A DNA stretch of 64,000 nt from Acidobacteriota bacterium (GCA_040005235.1 JBDTZG010000028.1:6940-70939), one strand, 5' to 3'. Positions 20,315 through 61,324 are shown, numbered from the stretch's first letter. Notes: generated by a model from the sequence alone, not told the origin. Numbers and translations are program-made.

Positions 20315-20427
20315 ACCGCAGTGGGGGCTGAACGCCCGCCGACCTACCCGGCGGGTCGTTGCCTCGCCCTGGGCTTGCCTTTATCCTGTGCCTTCCGATC
20401 CGCCGAACCGACCTTCGAGGAGGCCGC

Positions 20428-22362
<1,935 letters not shown>

Positions 22363-22384
22363 GGGAAGGACCCCCTCCAGTATG

Positions 22385-23209
22385 CTACTCATTCGGGTGA
22401 ATGACAGGGAAGGTGATGCCGAACACGCTGTAAGCAACCTCCTGTTCGGTAGTCCATAGGCGATGGTCGATGCCTCGGTATTCGATAACGAACGGAATTC
22501 GTAGAGACCTCGGGCCCTGCGACGGCATGGGTACCTCTAATAGCGCGCGCTGGAGCGATGCGTTAAAGTTGCTGACGTTTTCATGAATGAACTCGCCAGG
22601 CTGGAGGCTTTGGAAAGGTCCTCTCACCAATGAGCTGCGGTCGCCGATACTGATCTTGGGTATATTGATGTTAACTGCTGACGCGAGACCAAGATTCACA
22701 ATGCGGACTCTCTCCACGGTGTACTCTTGGCCGGTCTCTTCGTGCTCGACTGCTTCGCGAAAATATTCGTCTATAACTACCCAGGGCCTCTGAGGCATCG
22801 TGACTATCGTTCCAGGAGCTCGGCTATCCAGTTCGCTGAGTGCAGTTTCCTCAGCTAATTGTTTCCAGGAGCGTAGGATAGTTTCGGGAAACCGATTTAC
22901 ATCAGAATCGATGAGTTTTGCGCAGGTTTGGCAAAGCCAAATCGCATTTTCTGCAGACTTTCTCTGTGACGCTGTAATTTCTGGATGGTAGCGAGGTCCG
23001 CCTGGAGAAGCGGAAGTGATATGAGCTGCCACGCCAACATTGATCACACCGTTCCCAAGGAGAGCTGGGCCGCAGGTTTGTTTTCGGCACTTTTCATTCG
23101 AACAGTGGTTGGCAACGCGGTGAGCCAGTTCTGCTTTGATTTTTGCGCTGAAGTCGTCTCTCATCCGTAGAGCCTCTAGTTCTTTTGTTGATCGAGAGAT
23201 CAGATACAT
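22385..23209 (-). CDS. HNH-motif (Zn-finger nuclease-like) protein, N-terminal HNH domain + ~170-aa unknown C-terminal domain
   Basis: It has paired CxxC plus His/Asn: HCSNEKCRKQ...VAAHITSASPGG...NAIWLCQTCAKLID. It lies in a lower-GC island (~52-58%) immediately downstream of and convergent with acs, and directly downstream of the RAYT gene. Confidence 0.55.
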   Translation of the reverse strand: MYLISRSTKELEALRMRDDFSAKIKAELAHRVANHCSNEKCRKQTCGPALLGNGVINVGVAAHITSASPGGPRYHPEITASQRKSAENAIWLCQTCAKLIDSDVNRFPETILRSWKQLAEETALSELDSRAPGTIVTMPQRPWVVIDEYFREAVEHEETGQEYTVERVRIVNLGLASAVNINIPKISIGDRSSLVRGPFQSLQPGEFIHENVSNFNASLQRALLEVPMPSQGPRSLRIPFVIEYRGIDHRLWTTEQEVAYSVFGITFPVIHPNE

Positions 23210-23214
23210 CCACG

Positions 23215-23345
23215 GGCTCCTGGTTTAATTCTTGAAGGGCGAATTTCAAGGGCCGAAGGCCCATCCAATAATAGCCTAGGGCAACGCCCTAGGTTCCCGG
23301 TTCGCGCCCACCCCAAAAGGGCTGAAGGCCCGCACCATCCACCCT
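23215..23345. repeat. REP-like palindromic hairpins (3 units) on the 3' side of the RAYT gene
   Basis: The hairpins are gggccgaaggccc (~23250-23262), cctagggcaacgccctagg (~23275-23293) and gggctgaaggccc (~23329-23341). They have GC-rich stems and are each followed by ...catcc. Confidence 0.7.
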
Positions 23346-23797
23346 TAATCCCACACATACCGCTCATCGTAAGCCACTTTATATTTCGCCAGGAACGCCC
23401 GATATTCCTCCTGGAACGTGCGCGTTCGATGGTGCTCCTCCTGGTTGTCAATGTAGGCCACCAAAGCCTCCAGATCGCCGGGGCCGACAGAGAACACGCC
23501 GTAGCCGCGTTGCCACGCAAAGTTCTGAAGATCGGGCGACTGGGTCTTGAGCCATTTTGAGGAGGAAGTCTTGAGCTCTTCGACGAGGGCGGCAATCGTG
23601 ATCGTTCGAGAAAAGCGAATCGCCATGTGAACATGATCGGCCACGCCTCCGGCGCGATCGCAGAGGCAGCCCGCGTTGCGGGCGACGGTGGCCAAGTAGG
23701 CGTGTAGCGGTGTGCGGATCGTCGGTCCTATATATGCATAACGGTCCTTCGTGCTAAAGATCAGGTGAAGGACGACGTTGGCTAGCGATTGTGGCAT
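23345..23797 (-). CDS. tnpA: IS200/IS605-family Y1 (HUH) transposase, REP-associated tyrosine transposase (RAYT)-like
   Basis: 150 aa. It has the HUH motif HVHMAI and the catalytic Tyr context YIDNQEEHH. The size and motifs are typical of TnpA(IS200)/RAYT. It is flanked on both sides by inverted REP hairpins. Confidence 0.85.
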   Translation of the reverse strand: MPQSLANVVLHLIFSTKDRYAYIGPTIRTPLHAYLATVARNAGCLCDRAGGVADHVHMAIRFSRTITIAALVEELKTSSSKWLKTQSPDLQNFAWQRGYGVFSVGPGDLEALVAYIDNQEEHHRTRTFQEEYRAFLAKYKVAYDERYVWD

Positions 23798-23799
23798 GG

Positions 23800-23905
23800 T
23801 GAGTTAGGGCGGACTTTCAGTCCTTGGTGGGGTGCCAAACGGTCCTGTCCTGGGGCGTTGCCCCAGGCTTTTATAGGTTCGCGCCTTTGGCGCTGGCGGG
23901 ATCGT
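23800..23905. repeat. REP-like palindromic hairpins on the 5' side of the RAYT gene (inverted orientation)
   Basis: The hairpins are cctggggcgttgccccagg (~23849-23867), whose core is the reverse complement of the gggcaacgccc hairpin on the other side, and gcgcctttggcgc (~23881-23893). A ggtgccaaa motif is repeated at ~23831 and ~23966. Confidence 0.65.
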
Positions 23906-24046
23906 ACACCTCGCCGACGGGTGGCGGCGACTCAGCTTCCTTAGCGTGTAATCCCCCTTACCGTTGGTGCCAAAGGGTAGACTGTGCTGAATCGGCACTG
24001 AGCACGGCCAGGAACCGCCGCAATCACCCTTCGATCTAAGCCAGGC

Positions 24047-24592
24047 ATGATCAACGTGAAGCCTTGGTTCCGCCGCACGGTCTTGATTCTCGGTAGCGCG
24101 ATTCCTGTCAGTTTCGCCATTGGCTTTCTCGGCCATGGCGAATTTCCCGTGACGCATGTTGCGGTCCAGGCACTGGTAGTTGGTGGGTTCGTCTTTCTGG
24201 TCGTTGGCGGCGTGCTTCCCGCTACGCTGGCACGAGGGAAGAGCAGTGTCCTTCGATCGGGGCTGGTGTGTCTCGTCGCCGCGTTGCTCGTTTTTCCGGC
24301 GGCGCGGCTCGCCTGGCGCATCGACCTCTTCCGGTTCGACCGCTACGTTCGCCGCGAGCTGACTACGAAGCTCGAATCGACCCGCGCCGCACGGGGCGAA
24401 TATCCGGAAAGTTTATCCGCCCTCGGCTTACCCTCCGCAGCGAGTCCCTGGCTCTTGAAGCGAAGCGGTTTTGTACCGAAAGGAGGAGGCTTCACGATCT
24501 CGGTAATGGACCCGGGGGTTTGCGGACACCTACTGACCTACGATTCCGTTAGCACTCGTTGGGCCGAGTCGTGGGAGTCGTGCTGGTTCTGA
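24047..24592 (+). CDS. Hypothetical small membrane protein
   Basis: 181 aa with 3-4 predicted TM helices (VLILGSAIPVSFAIGFLG, ALVVGGFVFLVVGGVLPA, LVCLVAALLVFPAA). Intermediate GC. No recognisable family. Confidence 0.45.
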   Translation: MINVKPWFRRTVLILGSAIPVSFAIGFLGHGEFPVTHVAVQALVVGGFVFLVVGGVLPATLARGKSSVLRSGLVCLVAALLVFPAARLAWRIDLFRFDRYVRRELTTKLESTRAARGEYPESLSALGLPSAASPWLLKRSGFVPKGGGFTISVMDPGVCGHLLTYDSVSTRWAESWESCWF

Positions 24593-24711
24593 GGACCGGG
24601 TCTGCCCGTCCCATGGGATCCGGGATTCGGACCGGACACCACGGGCTGAGAGCTCGCGAGAGATAGGATCTCTTCTCCTGAGAGAGCACACAGGAAAGGG
24701 AAGCCTCACAG

Positions 24712-28149: not shown

Positions 28150-28485
28150 TTACGCGGCTCCGCGCTCCAAAGCGGGAGAACAGCTAACGTCAACTCTGAC
28201 TCCGGCGCGAGCGAGCATGTCGACCAGGGAGTCGCTGCTAAAGAGATCGACTCGTCCTCGCACCAGGTCGCTGATCCGAGGTTGGGTGACGCCGAACAAC
28301 TGCGCGGCCTTGATCTGCGTCAGCTTGCGATCCTGCATCAGCTTGCGAATCGTGAACATCAACGACGAGCGTAATTCGAGATGCGCCGCTTCCTCCGCTC
28401 CGAAGCCTAGATCCAAGAAAACGTTGCCGCTCGAAGGTGTGATTTCACTCATGCGGAGCGGCTTCATTGGCAGAGAACTATACAA
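28150..28485 (-). CDS. XRE-family HTH protein, HigA-like antitoxin-type (solitary)
   Basis: The N-terminal NVFLDLGF motif plus the HTH LTQIKAAQLFGVTQPRISDLVRG are typical of HigA-like antidotes. Length is ~100 aa if the start is at the third Met (28452). GC is lower (~58%). No toxin ORF is adjacent. Confidence 0.6.
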   Translation of the reverse strand: MYSSLPMKPLRMSEITPSSGNVFLDLGFGAEEAAHLELRSSLMFTIRKLMQDRKLTQIKAAQLFGVTQPRISDLVRGRVDLFSSDSLVDMLARAGVRVDVSCSPALERGAA

Positions 28486-28689: not shown

Positions 28690-29010
28690 GCGGAGCCCGA
28701 TTGCCGGATTCGGGAGTTGAACCGCGTGTTTTGCGACGGCAAGCCGCGTTTCGGGACCGCATTCGCGGTTCTGGGACCGCAAGCCGCTTCCTGAGACGGA
28801 TAGCCGCTTCCTGGGACTTCTCGCCGCTTTCTGGGACGGATAGCCGCTTCCTGGGACTTCTCGCCGCTTCCTGGGACGGATAGCCGCTTCCTGGGACCTC
28901 TCTCCGCTTCCTGGGACGGATAGCCGCTTCCTGGGACTTCAAGCCGCTTCCTGGGACGGATAGCGACTTCCTGGGACAGATCGCGGAGTTTCGGGACGGC
29001 TACGCGCTTT
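28690..29010. repeat. Tandem direct repeat array: ~12-15 copies of a 15-bp core gccgcttcctgggac (degenerate at the 5' edge) separated by 5-6 nt, with an overall ~40-bp super-period ggatagccgcttcctgggacttctcgccgcttcctgggac
   Basis: This is read directly from the sequence. The spacers alternate ggatag / ttctcg / ctctct / ttcaag. The array lies between the 3' end of the ABC exporter gene and the 5' side of the XRE gene. Confidence 0.85.
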
Positions 29011-29059: not shown

Positions 29060-30850
29060 TTAACTCGCCACGGCCAATTCTGCAGGCCGGGGGAGCGCGG
29101 GAACCATCGTCGGCCGCCGTTCGCCGATCTGCTGGCGCCACATGGCGAAGTAGAGACCTTTCAAGGCGAGCAGCTCGTCATGGCGGCCCGATTCGACGAT
29201 CCGGCCGTGTTCCAGGACGTGGATGCGGTCGGCGTGCATGATGGTCGAAAGCCGGTGGGCGATCAGGATCGTGATGACCTGGCTCGACGCCACCTCGCGG
29301 ATCGTGTCGGTGATCTCTTCCTCGGTCAGCGAATCGAGCGACGAGGTCGCCTCGTCGAACACCAGCAGGCGCGGTCGGCGGAGAAGAGCGCGAGCGATCG
29401 ACAGCCGCTGCTTTTCGCCGCCGGAGACTTTGACGCCCCCTTCGCCGATCACCGTGTCGAGACCGCGGTCGGCGCGCGCGAGCAGGCTTTCGCAGGCCGC
29501 TTTGTGGAGGACTTCCAGGCACTCGTCGTCGGTCGCATCCGGATTCACGAACAGCAGATTCTCGCGGATCGATCCGGAGAACAGCTGGGTGTCCTGGGTG
29601 ACGAAGCCGATCTGTACCCGCAGTTCGTCGAGGTCGATCTCTTCGCCCGACTTGCCGTTGTAGAGGACCCGTCCCCGGCCCGGGGAGTAGAGACCGACCA
29701 GCAGCTTGACCAGCGTCGTCTTGCCCGAGCCGGAAGGGCCGACGAATGCAGCGGTCTCTCCCCGGTGCAGCGAGAACGAGATGTCGGAGAGCGCCGGGGC
29801 GGACGCGGTCTGGTGGGTGAAGCCGACGTTTTCGAAGTCGAGAGTGGTGAGCTGGCCCAAAGGAAGCGGATTCACCGGCTTCGCCTCGATCGGGGTGGCG
29901 AGCACGGTCTGGAACATCTCGAGCGACGCTTCCGTCTCGCGGTAGGTGTTGATCACCGTCCCCAGCTCCTGGAGCGGGCCGAAGATGAAGAAGGAGTAGA
30001 TGAACAGCGAGAAGAACTGCCCGACCGTGATCTGCTGGGTAAAGATCAGGTAGAGCATCAAGAACAGGATTGAGGTCCGCATCGCGTTGACCAGCGTCCC
30101 CTGGATGAAGCTCAACAGGCGGAGCGATTTAACCTTCTTGAGCTCCAGCTGGAGGATCTTCGCGGTCGTCGCATTCAGCCGGCCGATCTCTTGCCGCGCG
30201 AGGCCCAGGCTTTTGACCAGCTCGATGTTGCGCAGCGATTCGGTGGTCGCCCCGGCGAGCGCCGTAGTCTCGGCGACGATCACCTTCTGGATCTTCTTGA
30301 TCCGTTTCGACAGCACCGAACTCAAGATCCCGATCAACGGCACGGTGAGCAGATAGACCGGCGCGATGATCCAGTGCACGCTCGCGGCGTAGATCATCAC
30401 GAAGACCACGCCGACTAGCGTCGTGAACAACAGGTTGACCGCGATCGCGATCAGCTTTTCCACGTCCGACCGCACCTTCTGGAGACGTCCGAGCGTCTCG
30501 CCGCTCCGCTGGTCTTCAAACAGCGAGTAAGGCAGCTCCAGCGAATGGCGGACGCCGTCCGAATAGAGATCGGCACCGACCCGCTGAGTGACGACGTTGA
30601 CGAAATAGTCCTGGAAGTTCTTGGCCACGCGCGACACGAACGCCACACCGACCGCCGCGGCGAGCAGGAGCGACACGCCGCGGAAGAACTGCTCGGTGGT
30701 GTACTCGGAGTAACGAGTGGCGTATTCGTCGATGACGTGACGAAAAATCAGGGGATCGAGCAGAGAGAAGACCTGATTGATCGCCGCCAGCACCAGGGCG
30801 AGCACCACCAGACCCCAGTAGCGACGGAGGTAGGAGTAGAGAAGTTTCAT
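29060..30850 (-). CDS. ABC transporter, fused transmembrane + ATPase (type I exporter, MsbA/ABCB-like)
   Basis: 596 aa. The six-TM domain is followed by Walker A GPSGSGKTT, the ABC signature VSGGEKQRLSIARA and Walker B LLVFDEATSSLD. Confidence 0.9.
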   Translation of the reverse strand: MKLLYSYLRRYWGLVVLALVLAAINQVFSLLDPLIFRHVIDEYATRYSEYTTEQFFRGVSLLLAAAVGVAFVSRVAKNFQDYFVNVVTQRVGADLYSDGVRHSLELPYSLFEDQRSGETLGRLQKVRSDVEKLIAIAVNLLFTTLVGVVFVMIYAASVHWIIAPVYLLTVPLIGILSSVLSKRIKKIQKVIVAETTALAGATTESLRNIELVKSLGLARQEIGRLNATTAKILQLELKKVKSLRLLSFIQGTLVNAMRTSILFLMLYLIFTQQITVGQFFSLFIYSFFIFGPLQELGTVINTYRETEASLEMFQTVLATPIEAKPVNPLPLGQLTTLDFENVGFTHQTASAPALSDISFSLHRGETAAFVGPSGSGKTTLVKLLVGLYSPGRGRVLYNGKSGEEIDLDELRVQIGFVTQDTQLFSGSIRENLLFVNPDATDDECLEVLHKAACESLLARADRGLDTVIGEGGVKVSGGEKQRLSIARALLRRPRLLVFDEATSSLDSLTEEEITDTIREVASSQVITILIAHRLSTIMHADRIHVLEHGRIVESGRHDELLALKGLYFAMWRQQIGERRPTMVPALPRPAELAVAS

Positions 30851-52499: not shown

Positions 52500-52694
52500 G
52501 CGTGCGAGGGTAGGTCCAGGGATTCAGCTTTCGCGCTAGCCTGCCGCTCGTGGATGGCGTAGTTATCCATTTCGATAACATTTCTTGGGATGCCGGGGAA
52601 CTTTCCCAGCTCGTCATGCCGAGCGAGAGCTCTGCACACTCCAGCGGAGGCGGGGGGGAGTTCCGGCACTACATTCAATATTGCAGGAACCACC

Positions 52695-53810
52695 CTAGGG
52701 CTGCAGGCCGCCGTTCCACGAAGTGTCCTTGAGCAGATCGGCCCAATTCACGTCGGCGCTCAGCACATTGAATTCGTCGCTGCCGTCCGAGAAGACGTTG
52801 AGGTGTGCCGCCCGCCGAAAGACCTCCTCGCCTTGAATTTCGAAGCCGGGCCGTAGCGGCGGCAAGATGTAGAGGCCCATCCACGGACTACCGGTTGGGT
52901 TACAGCCCGTCTGGCCGGAAGCGGTGCAGAAGGGGAGCGCCGTGATTTCGCCCGTCGTCAAGCGTCCCTGGGTATCGGTGTGCAGGCGCAGCAGGAAGGG
53001 GATTTCCAGGTCACTGTAGACACACACTCCGTCGTCATCGCAGGAAAGGGCAGAGTCATAGGCGTCAATCCGGTAAGTCAGCGGCTCCTCCGCCCGGTAG
53101 AGAGCGGTCTTGTAGGAAATAAAGGCGCAGAACGGATTGGGAATGGGTTCCGCCAGGCAGCCTGTCGGCCGAACCGTCCGCGCGAGGATCGAGTAGACCT
53201 TGAGGTCAAAGTCGGTCACTTCGGTATGGCAGGGAGAGAGTAGGTCGTCGACGGTCAAACCGCGTCCCGCGGTGTCCGCGTGGTCCGCCTGCGCGTCCTG
53301 GAGAGTGGTGATCCGAATCGAATTCTTCGGCTGAAAAGGGTCTGGCGGCTCCCGGGACAGGATGAGATCCACGAGCATCGAGAACCGGGTCGTCCCCTCG
53401 AGATTCGAAGACGCATCCCGCCGAACCAAGGTGGCCTGGGGCCGGCGATCCCTTCGGGGGTTCAAGAAGTCCTCGTCCTCGCGAAGGATCAGGTCGAACG
53501 CCAGCTGTTTCTCCTGTCGCTCGCGGTCGCCTTGAACCGTGGTGTGTCGCAACTGGCTGGTGCTGGCCAATCCTCTGTAGGTGCCGCCATTGGCGCTCGA
53601 CCGCCAGAGGAGGAGGCTCGACTCCCCGTAGGAAACCCCCATGCGGTGCAGCAACCTCCCCATTTGCCGCTCTTCGCAGGCGACCTGCTCGGACGTGAGG
53701 GGGCGGCCGAAGGGCTGGGCCACAGCATTGCGTACCGCACATGCGCCGAAGACCAGGGCCACGGCCCAAGCCGGCACCCGCCACCCTACGGCTGCAGGCC
53801 GCCGTTCCAC
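52695..53810 (-). CDS. Secreted protein of unknown function, 'WNGGLQP' family paralog A
   Basis: 371 aa with an N-terminal signal-like segment (AVALVFGACAVRNAVAQ). It is ~80-85% identical to the adjacent paralog B along its whole length (QPFG-PLTSEQVACEERQMGRLLHRMGVSYGE ... ADVNWADLLKDTSWNGGLQP). It contains several Cys. Confidence 0.7.
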   Translation of the reverse strand: MERRPAAVGWRVPAWAVALVFGACAVRNAVAQPFGRPLTSEQVACEERQMGRLLHRMGVSYGESSLLLWRSSANGGTYRGLASTSQLRHTTVQGDRERQEKQLAFDLILREDEDFLNPRRDRRPQATLVRRDASSNLEGTTRFSMLVDLILSREPPDPFQPKNSIRITTLQDAQADHADTAGRGLTVDDLLSPCHTEVTDFDLKVYSILARTVRPTGCLAEPIPNPFCAFISYKTALYRAEEPLTYRIDAYDSALSCDDDGVCVYSDLEIPFLLRLHTDTQGRLTTGEITALPFCTASGQTGCNPTGSPWMGLYILPPLRPGFEIQGEEVFRRAAHLNVFSDGSDEFNVLSADVNWADLLKDTSWNGGLQP

Positions 53811-54889
53811 GAGGTGTCCTTGAGCAGGTCCGCCCAGTTGACGTCGGCACGTAGAATGTTCAAGTCAGGAAAGGCAACCGAGAAAAGGTTCAGGTGGGCC
53901 GCACGCCGAAAGACTTCCTCTCCCTGAACCTCGATGCCGGGTCTCAGGGGAGGTAAGACGTAAAGGCCCATCCAAGGACTGTCCTCCGGGCTGCATCCGG
54001 TTTGGCCCGACGCTGTGCAAAACGGCAGCAGCGAGACCTCCCCGGATGCCAACCGGCCTTGGGCGTCGGCTTGGATGCGAAACAGCAGTGAATTCTGCTC
54101 GTCGCTGTAAACGCACACGCCGTCTTCGTCGCAGGACAACGAGGAGAGATATACGTCGGCCCGATAGGTCAGCGGCTCCTCCGCGCGGTAGAACGCGGTT
54201 TTAAAGGAAATGAATCCGCAGACCGGGTTGGGAATGGGTTCCGCCAGGCAGCCCGTCGGCCGCACCGTCCGGGCGAGGATCGAGTAGACCTTTAGGTCGA
54301 AATCGGTCACCTCAGTATGGCAGGTATTCAAAAGGTCGTCGACGGTCAGACCGCGTCCGGCGGTGTCCGCGTGGTCCTCCGGCGCTTCCTGGAGGGTGGT
54401 GATCCGGATCGAATTCTTTGGGTGGAAAGGGTCGGGCGGCTCCGGGGACAGGATGAGATCTACGAGCATCGAGAACCGGGTCGTTCCCATCGGGTCGAGG
54501 TTCGACGCCGCGTCCCGCCGGACCAGCGTCGCCTGCGGGCGGCGTTCCCGCCGGGGGTTCAAGAAGTCTTCATCGGCGCGGAGAATCAGGTCAAACGCCA
54601 GCTGTTTCTCATCGCGCATCCGGATGTCTACGGTCGTCGTAGGATCGAAATAAAGGTGGTCCGTACTGGCCAAGCCTCTGTAGCTGCCGCCGTTGGCCGC
54701 CGATCGCCAAAGGTAGAGGCCAGCCTCGCCATATGAGACCCCCATACGATGAAGCAATCGCCCCATCTGGCGCTCCTCGCAGGCGACCTGCTCGGACGTG
54801 AGGGGGCTGCCGAAGGGCTGGGCCGCCATAATTCCCGGGGCGATGATTACCAGGAAGAGAATCGCGAACAACGCGCTTTTGGGTTTCAT
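53786..54889 (-). CDS. Secreted protein of unknown function, 'WNGGLQP' family paralog B
   Basis: The start is the internal Met MKPKSALFAILFLVIIAPGIMAAQPFG, a clear signal peptide. 367 aa. It is tandem with paralog A. The upstream 103 aa of the track ORF is read-through. Confidence 0.75.
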   Translation of the reverse strand: MKPKSALFAILFLVIIAPGIMAAQPFGSPLTSEQVACEERQMGRLLHRMGVSYGEAGLYLWRSAANGGSYRGLASTDHLYFDPTTTVDIRMRDEKQLAFDLILRADEDFLNPRRERRPQATLVRRDAASNLDPMGTTRFSMLVDLILSPEPPDPFHPKNSIRITTLQEAPEDHADTAGRGLTVDDLLNTCHTEVTDFDLKVYSILARTVRPTGCLAEPIPNPVCGFISFKTAFYRAEEPLTYRADVYLSSLSCDEDGVCVYSDEQNSLLFRIQADAQGRLASGEVSLLPFCTASGQTGCSPEDSPWMGLYVLPPLRPGIEVQGEEVFRRAAHLNLFSVAFPDLNILRADVNWADLLKDTSWNGGLQP

Positions 54890-59955: not shown

Positions 59956-60023
59956 GGCCGGCGGCATTCTGGGAAAGGGGAGCGCGGGCGCCGTCGAGGA
60001 GCGGGCGGCGCCCGGGAATGCAT

Positions 60024-60584
60024 TCAGGGTGTGGATGCCTGAGCGAGGAAGGCACCAAAGACATCAGTAGGCACGTGGTCGATCTGGGCGCCGGGGCTGT
60101 TTGCGGCTTCAGAGAAGAAGTCCTCTATCGCTTGGACCGACCGAGCGAACGCATCGCTGCAAATTGTTGGAAATGCAGCGCCGAAGCCGAAGGTTTTTGT
60201 CACTTTGCTCGTGCCTTTCCTACCGAACCAAGTGACCGCGGAGACGAAGACTTCGCCTTGTCCTGGAACGTCCCGATAAGCGCAGTGGCCACGCTCGGAA
60301 CCGAATCGGTTCTCGGACAGGGCCTGCTGTAGCCGGCGGACGGCATCCGAAGTACCCCGGGCTCGAATCAGGGTCGTTTGGCCGGGCGACCGCTGGGTGC
60401 TGATCAACAGGCCATCGCGAAAGATGACGTAGTCGATATTTGTCTTGAAGCCGGTCACCTCGTCGTCGACGTGGGCCGTGCGACGAACGAGGTAGCTTTC
60501 GGGTGCCGGCGTCTGAGCCAGCGCCAGCGTGGGCAGGATCAGTGCCAGGGCATAGAGCCAGAAAACGGGTCTAGTTGCTCTCAT
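60024..60584 (-). CDS. Secreted protein of unknown function (tandem duplicate 1)
   Basis: The probable start is the Met of MRATRPVFWLYALALILPTLALAQTP (signal peptide). ~186 aa. It is ~85% identical to 60746..61324. Confidence 0.6.
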   Translation of the reverse strand: MRATRPVFWLYALALILPTLALAQTPAPESYLVRRTAHVDDEVTGFKTNIDYVIFRDGLLISTQRSPGQTTLIRARGTSDAVRRLQQALSENRFGSERGHCAYRDVPGQGEVFVSAVTWFGRKGTSKVTKTFGFGAAFPTICSDAFARSVQAIEDFFSEAANSPGAQIDHVPTDVFGAFLAQASTP

Positions 60585-60745
60585 ACGACACCTCCGGGGC
60601 GAGTATTCCACGGAACTACACGAACAATACCGGTTTGCCGGTTACAGCTTGTCAGTGGAGCGAGACATCCGGTTGTCGCCCAGGATTCTTACGGCGAAGG
60701 GACAAGCGGGCGCCGTCGAGGAGCGGGCGGCGCCCGGGCATGCAT

Positions 60746-61324
60746 TCAGGGTATGGATGCCTGAGCGAGGAAGGCACCAAAGACATCTGTAGGCACGTGG
60801 TCGATCTGGGCGCCGGGACTGTTCGCGGCCTCAAAGAAGAAATCCGCGATCGCTCGGACCGAGCGAGCAAATGACTCGCTGCATTGGGACGGGAATGCGG
60901 CGCCAACGCCGAAAGTTTTCGTCACCTGGCTGGTTCCCGTTCTTCCGAACCAAGTTACCGCTGAGACAAAGACTTCGCCTTGCCCCGGGAAGTCGCGATA
61001 CGAGCAGCGATTACCCGCGGTGCCGAACCGGTTCTGGGAAAGCACCTGCTGCAGCCTTCGGACGGCATCTGCCGTGCCCCGGGCTCGAATCAGGGTCGTT
61101 TGGCCCGGCGACCGTTGGGTGCTGATCAATAGGCCGTCTCGAAAGATGACGTAGTCGATATTTGTCTTGAAGCCGGTCACCTCGTCATCGACGTGGGCCG
61201 TCCTCCGGACGAGGTAGCTCTCGGCTGCCGGTGTTTGTGCCAGGGCCAACGTTGGCGGGTTCAGCCCCAGGGTACAGATCCAGAAAAGGTAACTTCTCGC
61301 TCTCATTCGCCACCTCCAAGCCAC
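60746..61324 (-). CDS. Secreted protein of unknown function (tandem duplicate 2)
   Basis: The signal peptide is (MAWRWR)MRARSYLFWICTLGLNPPTLALAQTP. The body is near-identical to duplicate 1 (YLVRRTAHVDDEVTGFKTNIDYVIFRDGLLISTQRSPGQTTLIRARG...). Confidence 0.6.
   Translation of the reverse strand: MAWRWRMRARSYLFWICTLGLNPPTLALAQTPAAESYLVRRTAHVDDEVTGFKTNIDYVIFRDGLLISTQRSPGQTTLIRARGTADAVRRLQQVLSQNRFGTAGNRCSYRDFPGQGEVFVSAVTWFGRTGTSQVTKTFGVGAAFPSQCSESFARSVRAIADFFFEAANSPGAQIDHVPTDVFGAFLAQASIP

Follow-up and report, generated by a model that had tools for sequence, protein, structure and literature searches.

In the REPtron or REP-RAYT systems, such as E. coli TnpA-REP with its repetitive extragenic palindromic (REP) sequences and bacterial interspersed mosaic elements (BIME) or the Pseudomonas RAYT with its REP doublets (REPIN), an apparently single-copy HUH Y1 gene lies between inverted palindromic repeats, each consisting of one palindrome of 20-40 nucleotides (nt). 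The class 2 RAYTs all have a Y---NP motif (Quentin et al., 2018; PMC6006769). In the same classification, subclass 1.2 of the TnpA-Y1 enzymes comprises proteins of about 148 amino acids (aa) with the motifs DH[IV]H, WQ and Y---Q--HH (YIKNQKEHH) and a C-terminal tail of about 30 aa; they are low-copy (on average 1.7 copies, at 36% identity between copies), not like insertion sequences (IS), mostly cyanobacterial or from Bacteroidetes, and listed as "REP: no" (Quentin et al., 2018; PMC6006769). A further described element is the Rfam family RF01687, the Acido-Lenti-1 RNA. It was defined from 89 copies, mostly of Lentisphaera araneosa and Koribacter versatilis, and considered a probable trans-acting small RNA (sRNA) that is "sometimes near group II introns", with transposases unmentioned (Weinberg et al., 2010; PMC2864571). 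Here we analyzed a 64-kb stretch of an Acidobacteriota metagenome-assembled genome (MAG; protein ABJC13_14510), called the window throughout, in which an island of lower GC content downstream of the acs gene carries a Y1 gene between two copies of a three-hairpin module in inverted orientation, next to a gene for an HNH nuclease-like protein. We consider it likely that the island consists of two independent neighbors, namely a REPtron-like unit of Y1 gene and modules and a horizontally acquired, low-GC nuclease gene of the defense type. As judged from sequence comparison, the module appears to be the Rfam "sRNA" Acido-Lenti-1, which would thereby become the repeat belonging to a RAYT-like enzyme family of IS200 descent, a family previously described as lacking a repeat partner.

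The unit around the Y1 gene is composed of the following features:

23248..23343, plus strand: module copy downstream of Y1, with hairpins h1 (23250-23262), h2 (23275-23293) and h3 (23319-23331), ending 1 nt before the Y1 stop codon.
23345..23797, minus strand: Y1 HUH gene, 150 aa, IS200-related "subclass 1.2" (Pfam, NCBIfam and motif match to Table 1 of Quentin et al.).
23799..23894, minus strand: inverted module copy upstream of Y1, with h3 (23811-23823), h2 (23849-23867) and h1 (23881-23893), reaching inward to 1 nt before the Y1 ATG.

The Y1 open reading frame (ORF) matches the Pfam family Y1_Tnp (PF01797; 9e-23) and the NCBIfam IS200 equivalog NF033573 (65.1 bits, cut-off 55). The protein contains DHVH at residues 54-57 (HuH = H55-V-H57), W95-Q96 (AWQ), the catalytic Y115, Q119 and H121-H122, and a 30-aa C-terminal tail (residues 121-150). 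Motif set, length and tail agree point by point with TnpA-Y1 subclass 1.2. Among the PDB sequence matches, which were weak, the best were the IS200-type TnpA structures 2f4f, 2a6m and 2xm3, and E. coli TnpA-REP did not appear at E<=1. Quentin's class 3, the Y1 proteins of Planctomycetes and Acidobacteria (NHVH, YV..EQ), was considered as well and dropped on motifs. An earlier first-pass annotation of the window had named two ORFs here. Both exist (22385-23209, 274 aa, and 23345-23797, 150 aa, each on the minus strand), and the motifs HVHMAI and YIDNQEEHH that it had read in the second are present. It had also proposed a classic REP-RAYT-REP arrangement. This arrangement stands, and the repeat is found dispersed without the gene in other genomes, but the enzyme is not a classical RAYT: identity with class 2 was rejected because Y---Q--HH (YIDNQEEHH) is found in place of Y---NP. 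The idea that such a unit is unusual outside Proteobacteria did not hold. More than 7,990 close homologues at 73-85% identity occur in Acidobacteriota, Verrucomicrobiota, Planctomycetota and other phyla, and many of them already bear the label "RayT" at JGI, while "IS200/IS605" is the label at NCBI. Among 72,556 plasmids, hardly any members of the subfamily were found.

The two Y1 flanks share a 29-nt inverted repeat that extends to three hairpins per side; in the left flank these are GGGCCGAAGGCCC (23250-23262), CCTAGGGCAACGCCCTAGG (23275-23293) and GGGCTGAAGGCCC (23319-23331). The inverted hairpins reported on both sides of the gene in the first pass are thus real, but have to be corrected to composite three-hairpin modules of about 95 nt. 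Comparison of copies from different places sets the limits of the conserved unit at about 25 nt before the central hairpin and about 12 nt past h3. The central hairpin pattern, for which 0.07 occurrences per window are expected by chance, is present at the two Y1 flanks. A search of Rfam revealed that the hairpins belong to a curated family, which had been missed before: the left copy matches RF01687 with 39.6 bits (gathering threshold 37; 23249-23293, minus strand, h1 and h2), and the right copy with 30.9 bits, which is below gathering (E 1.5e-4; 23849-23894, plus strand). With our own covariance model, R1, the left and right copies score 76.6 and 74.9 bits. The RF01687 model spans h2 and h1 alone, and h3 follows another 25 nt or so further on. 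In the literature that names Acido-Lenti-1 we found no link to a transposase, and in the part of Weinberg's annotated alignment that we inspected the flanking sequence carries no gene names.

The modules are conserved as structures. In 86 modules from many genomes, 97.8% of the cells were paired and 204 cells were compensatory, which none of 500 shuffles equaled, and controls with slid positions reached at most 52% pairing. The search pattern used to collect these modules left h1 and h3 free. Wobble pairs are distributed unequally between the strands. On the strand reading h1->h2->h3 we counted 61 G·T against 7 A·C pairs (p 7e-12), and Weinberg's seed alignment, read on the Rfam strand, holds 38 A·C against 8 G·U. 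From this asymmetry in both data sets we conclude that selection has kept the structure on the strand that Rfam does not annotate. GAA/GNA triloops predominate among the loops. Such triloops form very stable DNA mini-hairpins, whereas GNRA and UUCG tetraloops are typical of RNA. The stems of h1 and h3 are identical within a module in 32 of the 86 cases, where 11.7 are expected and 5000 shuffles gave 26 at most, and their 3' tails are also alike. This likeness fits one protein reading both hairpins, as happens with the two ends, left and right, of an IS200-type element. Located 5' of the main hairpin is a conserved "YAG" foot, rich in purines, which resembles the GTAG foot of REPtrons. On the Rfam strand, h2 followed by CTWTTATWGG scores as terminator-like. 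A role of the modules as intrinsic terminators was rejected, since 3 such sites compare with 1.9±1.5 in shuffles. No promoter-like site was found in the region.

The association of module and Y1 gene extends to the whole family. We chose 80 Y1 loci (L142-L221) by protein similarity alone (51-81% identity), and R1 detected 247 modules in them. The less sensitive nhmmer recovered 168 matches. Of these, 83 are flush with the Y1 ORF; a further 55 are no more than 300 nt away, 24 no more than 1 kb, and 5 farther still. By nhmmer, a sense module is flush with the Y1 ATG in 34 of 75 loci and an inverted module flush with the stop codon in 38 of 75, and both are found in 26 of 71. When the curated Rfam library was run on 40 of these Y1 loci, RF01687 was the sole recurrent family; its 13 matches above gathering all lie beside Y1 and show the inverted geometry seen in the window. 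Relatives fetched by exact protein look-up (L006, L007, L009-L018) have the same modules with compensatory stem changes. A single Y1 copy was present in 79 of the 80 protein-selected loci, counted per locus. The locus shares length, DH[IV]H, WQ, Y---Q--HH, the 30-aa tail and low copy number with subclass 1.2, and on these sequence features membership itself holds. Unlike the published description, most members examined here have three-hairpin modules, and the subclass is abundant in Acidobacteriota, Verrucomicrobiota and Planctomycetota. At the level of sequence, the picture of a mostly cyanobacterial or Bacteroidetes group without REP is contradicted by the present data.

The module also occurs away from the gene. 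We scanned one genome per species with the central hairpin plus a 5' AG (17 specified bases) and obtained at least 120 loci. The taxa among the matches listed were Acidobacteriota, Planctomycetota, Verrucomicrobiota, Lentisphaeria, Chlamydiota, Kiritimatiellia, large sulfur bacteria and a few others. Since h1 and h3 were each found at the expected offset in 164 of the 175 matches listed, the pattern matches are genuine modules. About 10 of the 120 loci listed contain a Y1 gene, always 38-130 nt from the module, and about 110 do not, so that modules far outnumber Y1 genes. Among the matches listed, many orphan modules are paired as inverted doublets with a distance of 100-150 nt, and in several genomes more than one contig carries copies. 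The first pass had suggested looking for further copies of the hairpins: orphan copies do exist in other genomes, and none was found elsewhere in the 64-kb window by pattern or R1. REP status rests on these other genomes because the window holds no additional copy, and REP/REPIN-like dispersal is shown for the module family rather than for this organism.

Some individual copies deserve description. At L003:6925-7133 we found a near-perfect palindromic module doublet of about 210 nt with a 4-nt loop variant and a GTAG foot, which resembles the unit of the window minus the gene. A PDC-S64-like gene and a homologue of the HNH protein follow about 120 nt downstream of it, and no Y1 gene is present within 8 kb. 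Two alike inverted doublets of about 300 nt (L052:~1230-1520 and L056:~700-980) are located on different contigs of one Pyrinomonadaceae MAG. The palindrome of each copy continues for about 15 nt into its flanks, and these flanks are not the same in the two copies; the doublets could have inserted into hairpins already present or have arisen by fold-back copying. A Candidatus Parabeggiatoa MAG (L020:357-677) contains a tandem array of seven units, repeated every 50 nt, that have hairpin 1 and the central hairpin only.

The neighborhood of the units in other genomes was compared, too. Y1 units are found inside type I restriction-modification (R-M) operons between hsdM and hsdS (L009-L018, with Y1 at L009:10001-10453; L007:10001-10453). 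Among 57 immediate Y1 neighbors in L142-L221 the top Pfam families were N6_Mtase, HsdM_N and Methylase_S, 3 each, a count that has no control set for enrichment. Modules lie at most 250 nt upstream in 2 of 5 independent loci of the HNH-β-sandwich family. This distribution suggests that the element tends to land, or to survive, in defense islands. Other relatives of the Y1 unit adjoin the defense genes SLFN_AlbA_2, Macro, helicase and PIN-MazE.

Taken together, the unit resembles REPtrons in the apparently single-copy HUH Y1 gene between inverted palindromic repeats, in the dispersal of the repeat as singles and inverted doublets far more often than the gene, and in the stable chromosomal position of the Y1 gene in related lineages. 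It differs in the Y---Q--HH motif, in the composite repeat of about 95 nt with three hairpins, in the low copy density that is concentrated beside the gene, in the hosts, which are Acidobacteriota, the Planctomycetes-Verrucomicrobia-Chlamydiae (PVC) group and others, and in the high identity across phyla. From the precedents of TnpA-IS200 and TnpA-REP we infer that the Y1 enzyme would bind its hairpins when the DNA is in the single-stranded state, on the h1->h2->h3 strand. The outer, co-varying hairpins h1 and h3 with their 3' tails may play the part that the left and right ends have in IS200-type elements, and the enzyme would cut and rejoin near the hairpins via a 5'-phosphotyrosine link. 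Such reactions could spread modules and inverted doublets in trans in a REP/REPIN-like manner, while the Y1 gene would stay in place and be inherited vertically. Our more specific proposal is a tentative one, to which we give somewhat less than even odds: Acido-Lenti-1 may be the single-stranded DNA substrate of subclass 1.2 Y1 enzymes, with units mobilized in trans, and may represent a REP/RAYT-type system of Acidobacteriota, the PVC group and other phyla that arose from the IS200 branch independently of the classical RAYTs and has a preference for defense islands and type I R-M operons.

Several of our own results speak against the REPtron-like view of the unit. The Y1 protein scores above the NCBI cut-off for a genuine IS200 transposase. 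Its identity of 73-85% across phyla suggests horizontal transfer, unlike the strictly vertical RAYTs. The modules are concentrated tightly around Y1, which an IS with elaborate ends and local duplications would also yield, and the window has no module beyond the two at the Y1 flanks. Finally, the strand bias fits RNA equally well as single-stranded DNA, and h2 with its T-rich tail is terminator-like on the Rfam strand.

The strongest alternative is an ordinary active IS of the IS200/IS605 type in which the modules are terminal structures and the orphans and doublets are deletion derivatives comparable to miniature inverted-repeat or palindrome-associated transposable elements (MITE/PATE), without domestication or a host role. 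The Pfam match to Y1_Tnp, the equivalog score and the Y---Q motif are of the IS200 type, the units are inserted between hsdM and hsdS of type I R-M operons, and the high cross-phylum identity implies horizontal spread. The L003 doublet resembles a unit with its gene deleted, and h1 and h3, in direct orientation, resemble the left-end (LE) and right-end (RE) hairpins of IS200. Indeed, with IS200/IS605 elements (IS608, ISDra2) and their PATE/MITE derivatives the unit shares the protein fold family, the LE/RE-like direct pair of h1 and h3 and the hairpin-dependent chemistry expected on single-stranded DNA. However, the ends of IS200/IS605 elements are asymmetric and lie on one strand, whereas here two full modules are inverted around the gene. 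There is no tnpB, the gene is not multi-copy (one Y1 copy in 79 of 80 loci), and the subfamily is nearly missing from plasmids. The unit resides at the same site in two lineages that are 15% apart in DNA, and its protein is conserved. For subclass 1.2, a low number of copies with little identity among them was reported (Quentin et al., 2018; PMC6006769), and modules greatly outnumber genes. We therefore regard an ordinary IS as unlikely.

Still less probable, and in our estimate a long way from the REPtron-like unit, is that the modules are structured sRNAs or cis-acting RNA elements (terminators, mRNA stabilizers or regulators in a 5' untranslated region (UTR)), placed so as to control expression. 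RF01687 was curated as an sRNA with covariation, a strand-specific wobble bias is expected of RNA, and the upstream module lies on the sense strand of Y1 just before its ATG, where it could form a 5' UTR; h2 with CTWTTATWGG is terminator-like. E. coli REPs affect mRNA stability and termination. Two of these RNA arguments conflict, because the terminator-like reading applies to the Rfam strand and pairing is better on the other one. Furthermore, terminator-like sites are no commoner than in shuffles, the triloops are of the DNA type, and the region lacks a promoter-like site. Symmetric inverted copies at the two ends of an HUH gene, inverted doublets and tandem arrays are what DNA repeats processed by HUH enzymes typically show. 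Compared with RF01687, the modules share two of the three hairpins, the spacer and the taxa (Acidobacteria, Lentisphaerae, Planctomycetes), but they are part of a longer unit that brackets Y1 genes and is better paired on the opposite strand. Acido-Lenti-1 is probably a DNA-level element.

A passenger role of the HNH protein, as homing-type or element-maintenance nuclease of the Y1 element, is hardly credible: although the HNH gene adjoins Y1 in the same orientation with a module between them in the window and in its relative L139, and the L003 doublet lies upstream of the operon of an HNH homologue, no homologue occurs in the 80 Y1 loci or the 120 module loci listed, the homologues of L005, L140 and L141 have neither Y1 nor module, the modules bracket Y1 alone with the HNH gene outside, and the GC content is 0.52 for HNH against 0.57 for Y1.

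This bears directly on the REPtron-like unit and its neighbor being independent. HNH homologues were detected in 0 of 80 Y1 loci and, among the matches listed, in 0 of 120 module loci. The distant HNH loci L005, L140 and L141, three of four examined, have neither Y1 nor module nearby, and the fourth, L003, has the module doublet and no Y1. Adjacency of Y1 and HNH is therefore specific to the lineage of the window and L139, a functional linkage was rejected, and the linkage that the first-pass annotation had thought worth noting is not conserved. L139 is a metagenomic relative that is collinear with window positions 24269-21856 at 85% nt identity. It carries the same island at the same site and with the same low GC content; its Y1 protein is 89% identical in aa and its modules are 80-85% identical. 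The island is thus not recent and predates the divergence of about 15% in nt, contrary to the recent acquisition envisaged before. The comparison for absence of the island used L139 alone, as the ORF181 anchor (described below) gave zero homologues.

The second neighbor is the HNH gene, for which we annotated the following features:

22385..23164, minus strand: HNH gene, 259 aa (the mechanical ORF to 23209 has 274 aa), with the conserved start M16 at 23164; AlphaFold pLDDT 86.6.
22820..23164, minus strand: N-terminal HNH (ββα-metal) domain of the Cap5/CBASS-effector type (PADLOC, PDB and Foldseek).
22388..22819, minus strand: C-terminal Ig-like β-sandwich of about 140 aa (135-144) without a Pfam family; domain model pLDDT 85.5.

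The gene most likely starts at M16 (23164), because all homologues begin with MRDDF or MRDEF and L139 lacks a 45-nt extension. In the window this 45-nt stretch is located in the region 23165-23220, upstream of the conserved start; it opens with a second "ggagcccgtggATG" and creates the 274-aa ORF. Of the earlier description, the HNH domain was upheld, while the start and the length of the C-terminal domain, given as about 170 aa, had to be changed to M16 (259 aa) and about 135-144 aa. No Pfam or NCBIfam model matches the protein. PADLOC assigns residues 17-125 to PDC-M68A (2e-22), a CBASS (antiphage signaling system based on cyclic oligonucleotides) endonuclease effector (1e-17) and SAVED_HNH (3e-17). 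PDB sequence matches were 9om4 and 7rwm, which are Cap5 structures and an "HNH endonuclease", and the N-domain of the AlphaFold model aligned to activated Cap5 (8fmf) with a Foldseek E of 9e-5. The N-domain is shared by a family of more than 1,000 proteins that differ in their C-termini. Invariant in it are a CCCC zinc knuckle (C21, C26, C78, C81), H48, N73, D86, D88 and Ala82. PsCap5 uses His56 as general base and His91 and Asp95 as Mg ligands (PMC12141522); the equivalents here are His48, Ala82 and Asp86. Members of the N-domain family also sit in the "lysogenic conversion" slots of P2-like phages (MT837468.1, NC_070918.1, AJ512680.1; H13-H16). The lysogenic conversion regions of P2-like phages are known hotspots of defense genes.

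The C-terminal domain is rare: a search of 1.84 billion representatives yielded 27 clusters. It follows six kinds of toxic N-domain, including canonical HNH, CAP12/Pycsar-type TIR (9e-26), TIR_2, Schlafen/AlbA (SLFN_AlbA_2) and a domain with two transmembrane (TM) segments. It gave no PDB fold match with E<=1e-3 and no match to SAVED. Since effector swapping is a hallmark of sensor domains in single-chain defense proteins, we propose that the β-sandwich is a sensor or regulatory domain. The HNH N-domain would then be a DNA-cutting effector that is held inactive until the C-domain binds a signal. On this sequence evidence the HNH-β-sandwich protein is most likely a candidate abortive-infection-type, single-protein defense effector, and the earlier suggestion of a defense role is credible given the Cap5-type HNH domain, the PDC-M68A match and the effector-swapping C-domain. 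Like CBASS Cap5, the protein has an HNH domain of the Cap5 type in sequence and fold that keeps the general-base His and the Asp ligand. With Cap5 and other effector-sensor proteins (Cap15, PycTM, PycTIR) it shares the order of a toxic N-terminal effector and a C-terminal regulatory domain, the C-domain being combined with HNH, TIR-like and TM effectors. Unlike Cap5, it has no SAVED domain and no adjacent cyclase (CD-NTase) gene, its C-domain is unclassified and the His91 equivalent is Ala.

Three observations weigh against the defense assignment. The match to PDC-M68A spans profile positions 2-110 of 253, which is the N-terminal part only, and PDC entries are themselves candidates; we found no literature on PDC-M68. 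The metal ligand equivalent to His91 is replaced by Ala82 across the whole HNH family, and with one ligand missing family-wide, nuclease activity is a plausible prediction. The aa identity to L139 (83%) is below the nt identity (88%), indicating weak constraint on the protein. As to possible partners, distant full-length homologues adjoin the PADLOC candidates PDC-S64 and PDC-S15. A multi-gene system was rejected, as the upstream neighbors come from different families (PDC-S64/DUF3644, PDC-S15/FRG, a weak AbiGi). No conserved partner gene was found, since the downstream ORFs of about 305 aa in L140 and L005 are unrelated.

The gene neighbors of the HNH gene are acs, Y1, ORF181 and an M1 peptidase. 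Two further ORFs were annotated in and beside the island:

20359..22362, plus strand: acs (acetyl-CoA synthetase), left border of the island (Pfam AMP-binding 4e-89, ACAS_N; 98% aa identity to L139).
24047..24592, plus strand: ORF181, inside the island as first drawn and outside the Y1 unit; orphan ORF of doubtful reality.

The acs stop codon is at 22362, and acs and the HNH gene are convergent with their stop codons 22 nt apart. The visible GC drop after acs, already described in the first pass, was confirmed in a windowed profile (about 0.66 to 0.50). In 400-nt windows the content falls from 0.63-0.70 in acs and upstream to 0.50 at 22600-23200 and is 0.57-0.60 over 23200-24200; per gene it amounts to 0.52 for HNH, 0.57 for Y1 and 0.65 for acs, compared to 0.66 for the entire 64-kb window. 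ORF181 has no family match in Pfam, NCBIfam or PADLOC, and a search of 5.8 billion proteins gave no homologue. This lack of homologues and an aa identity to the L139 counterpart of 59% at 86.5% nt identity make it improbable that ORF181 is a conserved gene.

Other repeats are present elsewhere in the window. A tandem array with a 20/40-nt period and the consensus CTGGGACGGATAGCCGCTTC occupies 28771-29009 (Tandem Repeats Finder score up to 334). It is located between an XRE/HigA-like ORF (28150-28485, minus strand) and an ABC transporter gene (29060-30850, minus strand), and an overlying ORF of 225 aa looks spurious. The HigA-like region is bracketed by direct repeats at 28060-28146/28590-28676 (87 nt, 92%) and 27288-27325/28542-28579 (38 nt, 95%). 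Positions 52690-54824 and 59975-60996 comprise a tandem paralogous duplication of about 1.1 kb (71-84% identity) and a pair of 300-nt repeats (84%).

The HNH-β-sandwich protein defines a rare domain that is joined to HNH, TIR, Schlafen/AlbA and membrane effectors, which makes it a candidate for a new sensor module in anti-phage systems that consist of a single protein. For the repeat, an orphan Rfam family gains a testable identity after 16 years, namely that of a REP-type DNA repeat which would be tied to a specific HUH enzyme and was probably annotated on the wrong strand. If this is true, annotators could drop the sRNA label for the hairpins and the label of an active IS200 transposase for the Y1 genes. 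It would also mean that REP/RAYT-like domestication has at least two origins, one of them in the IS200 branch, and that it is widespread among phyla of soil and water in which such repeats are seldom studied.

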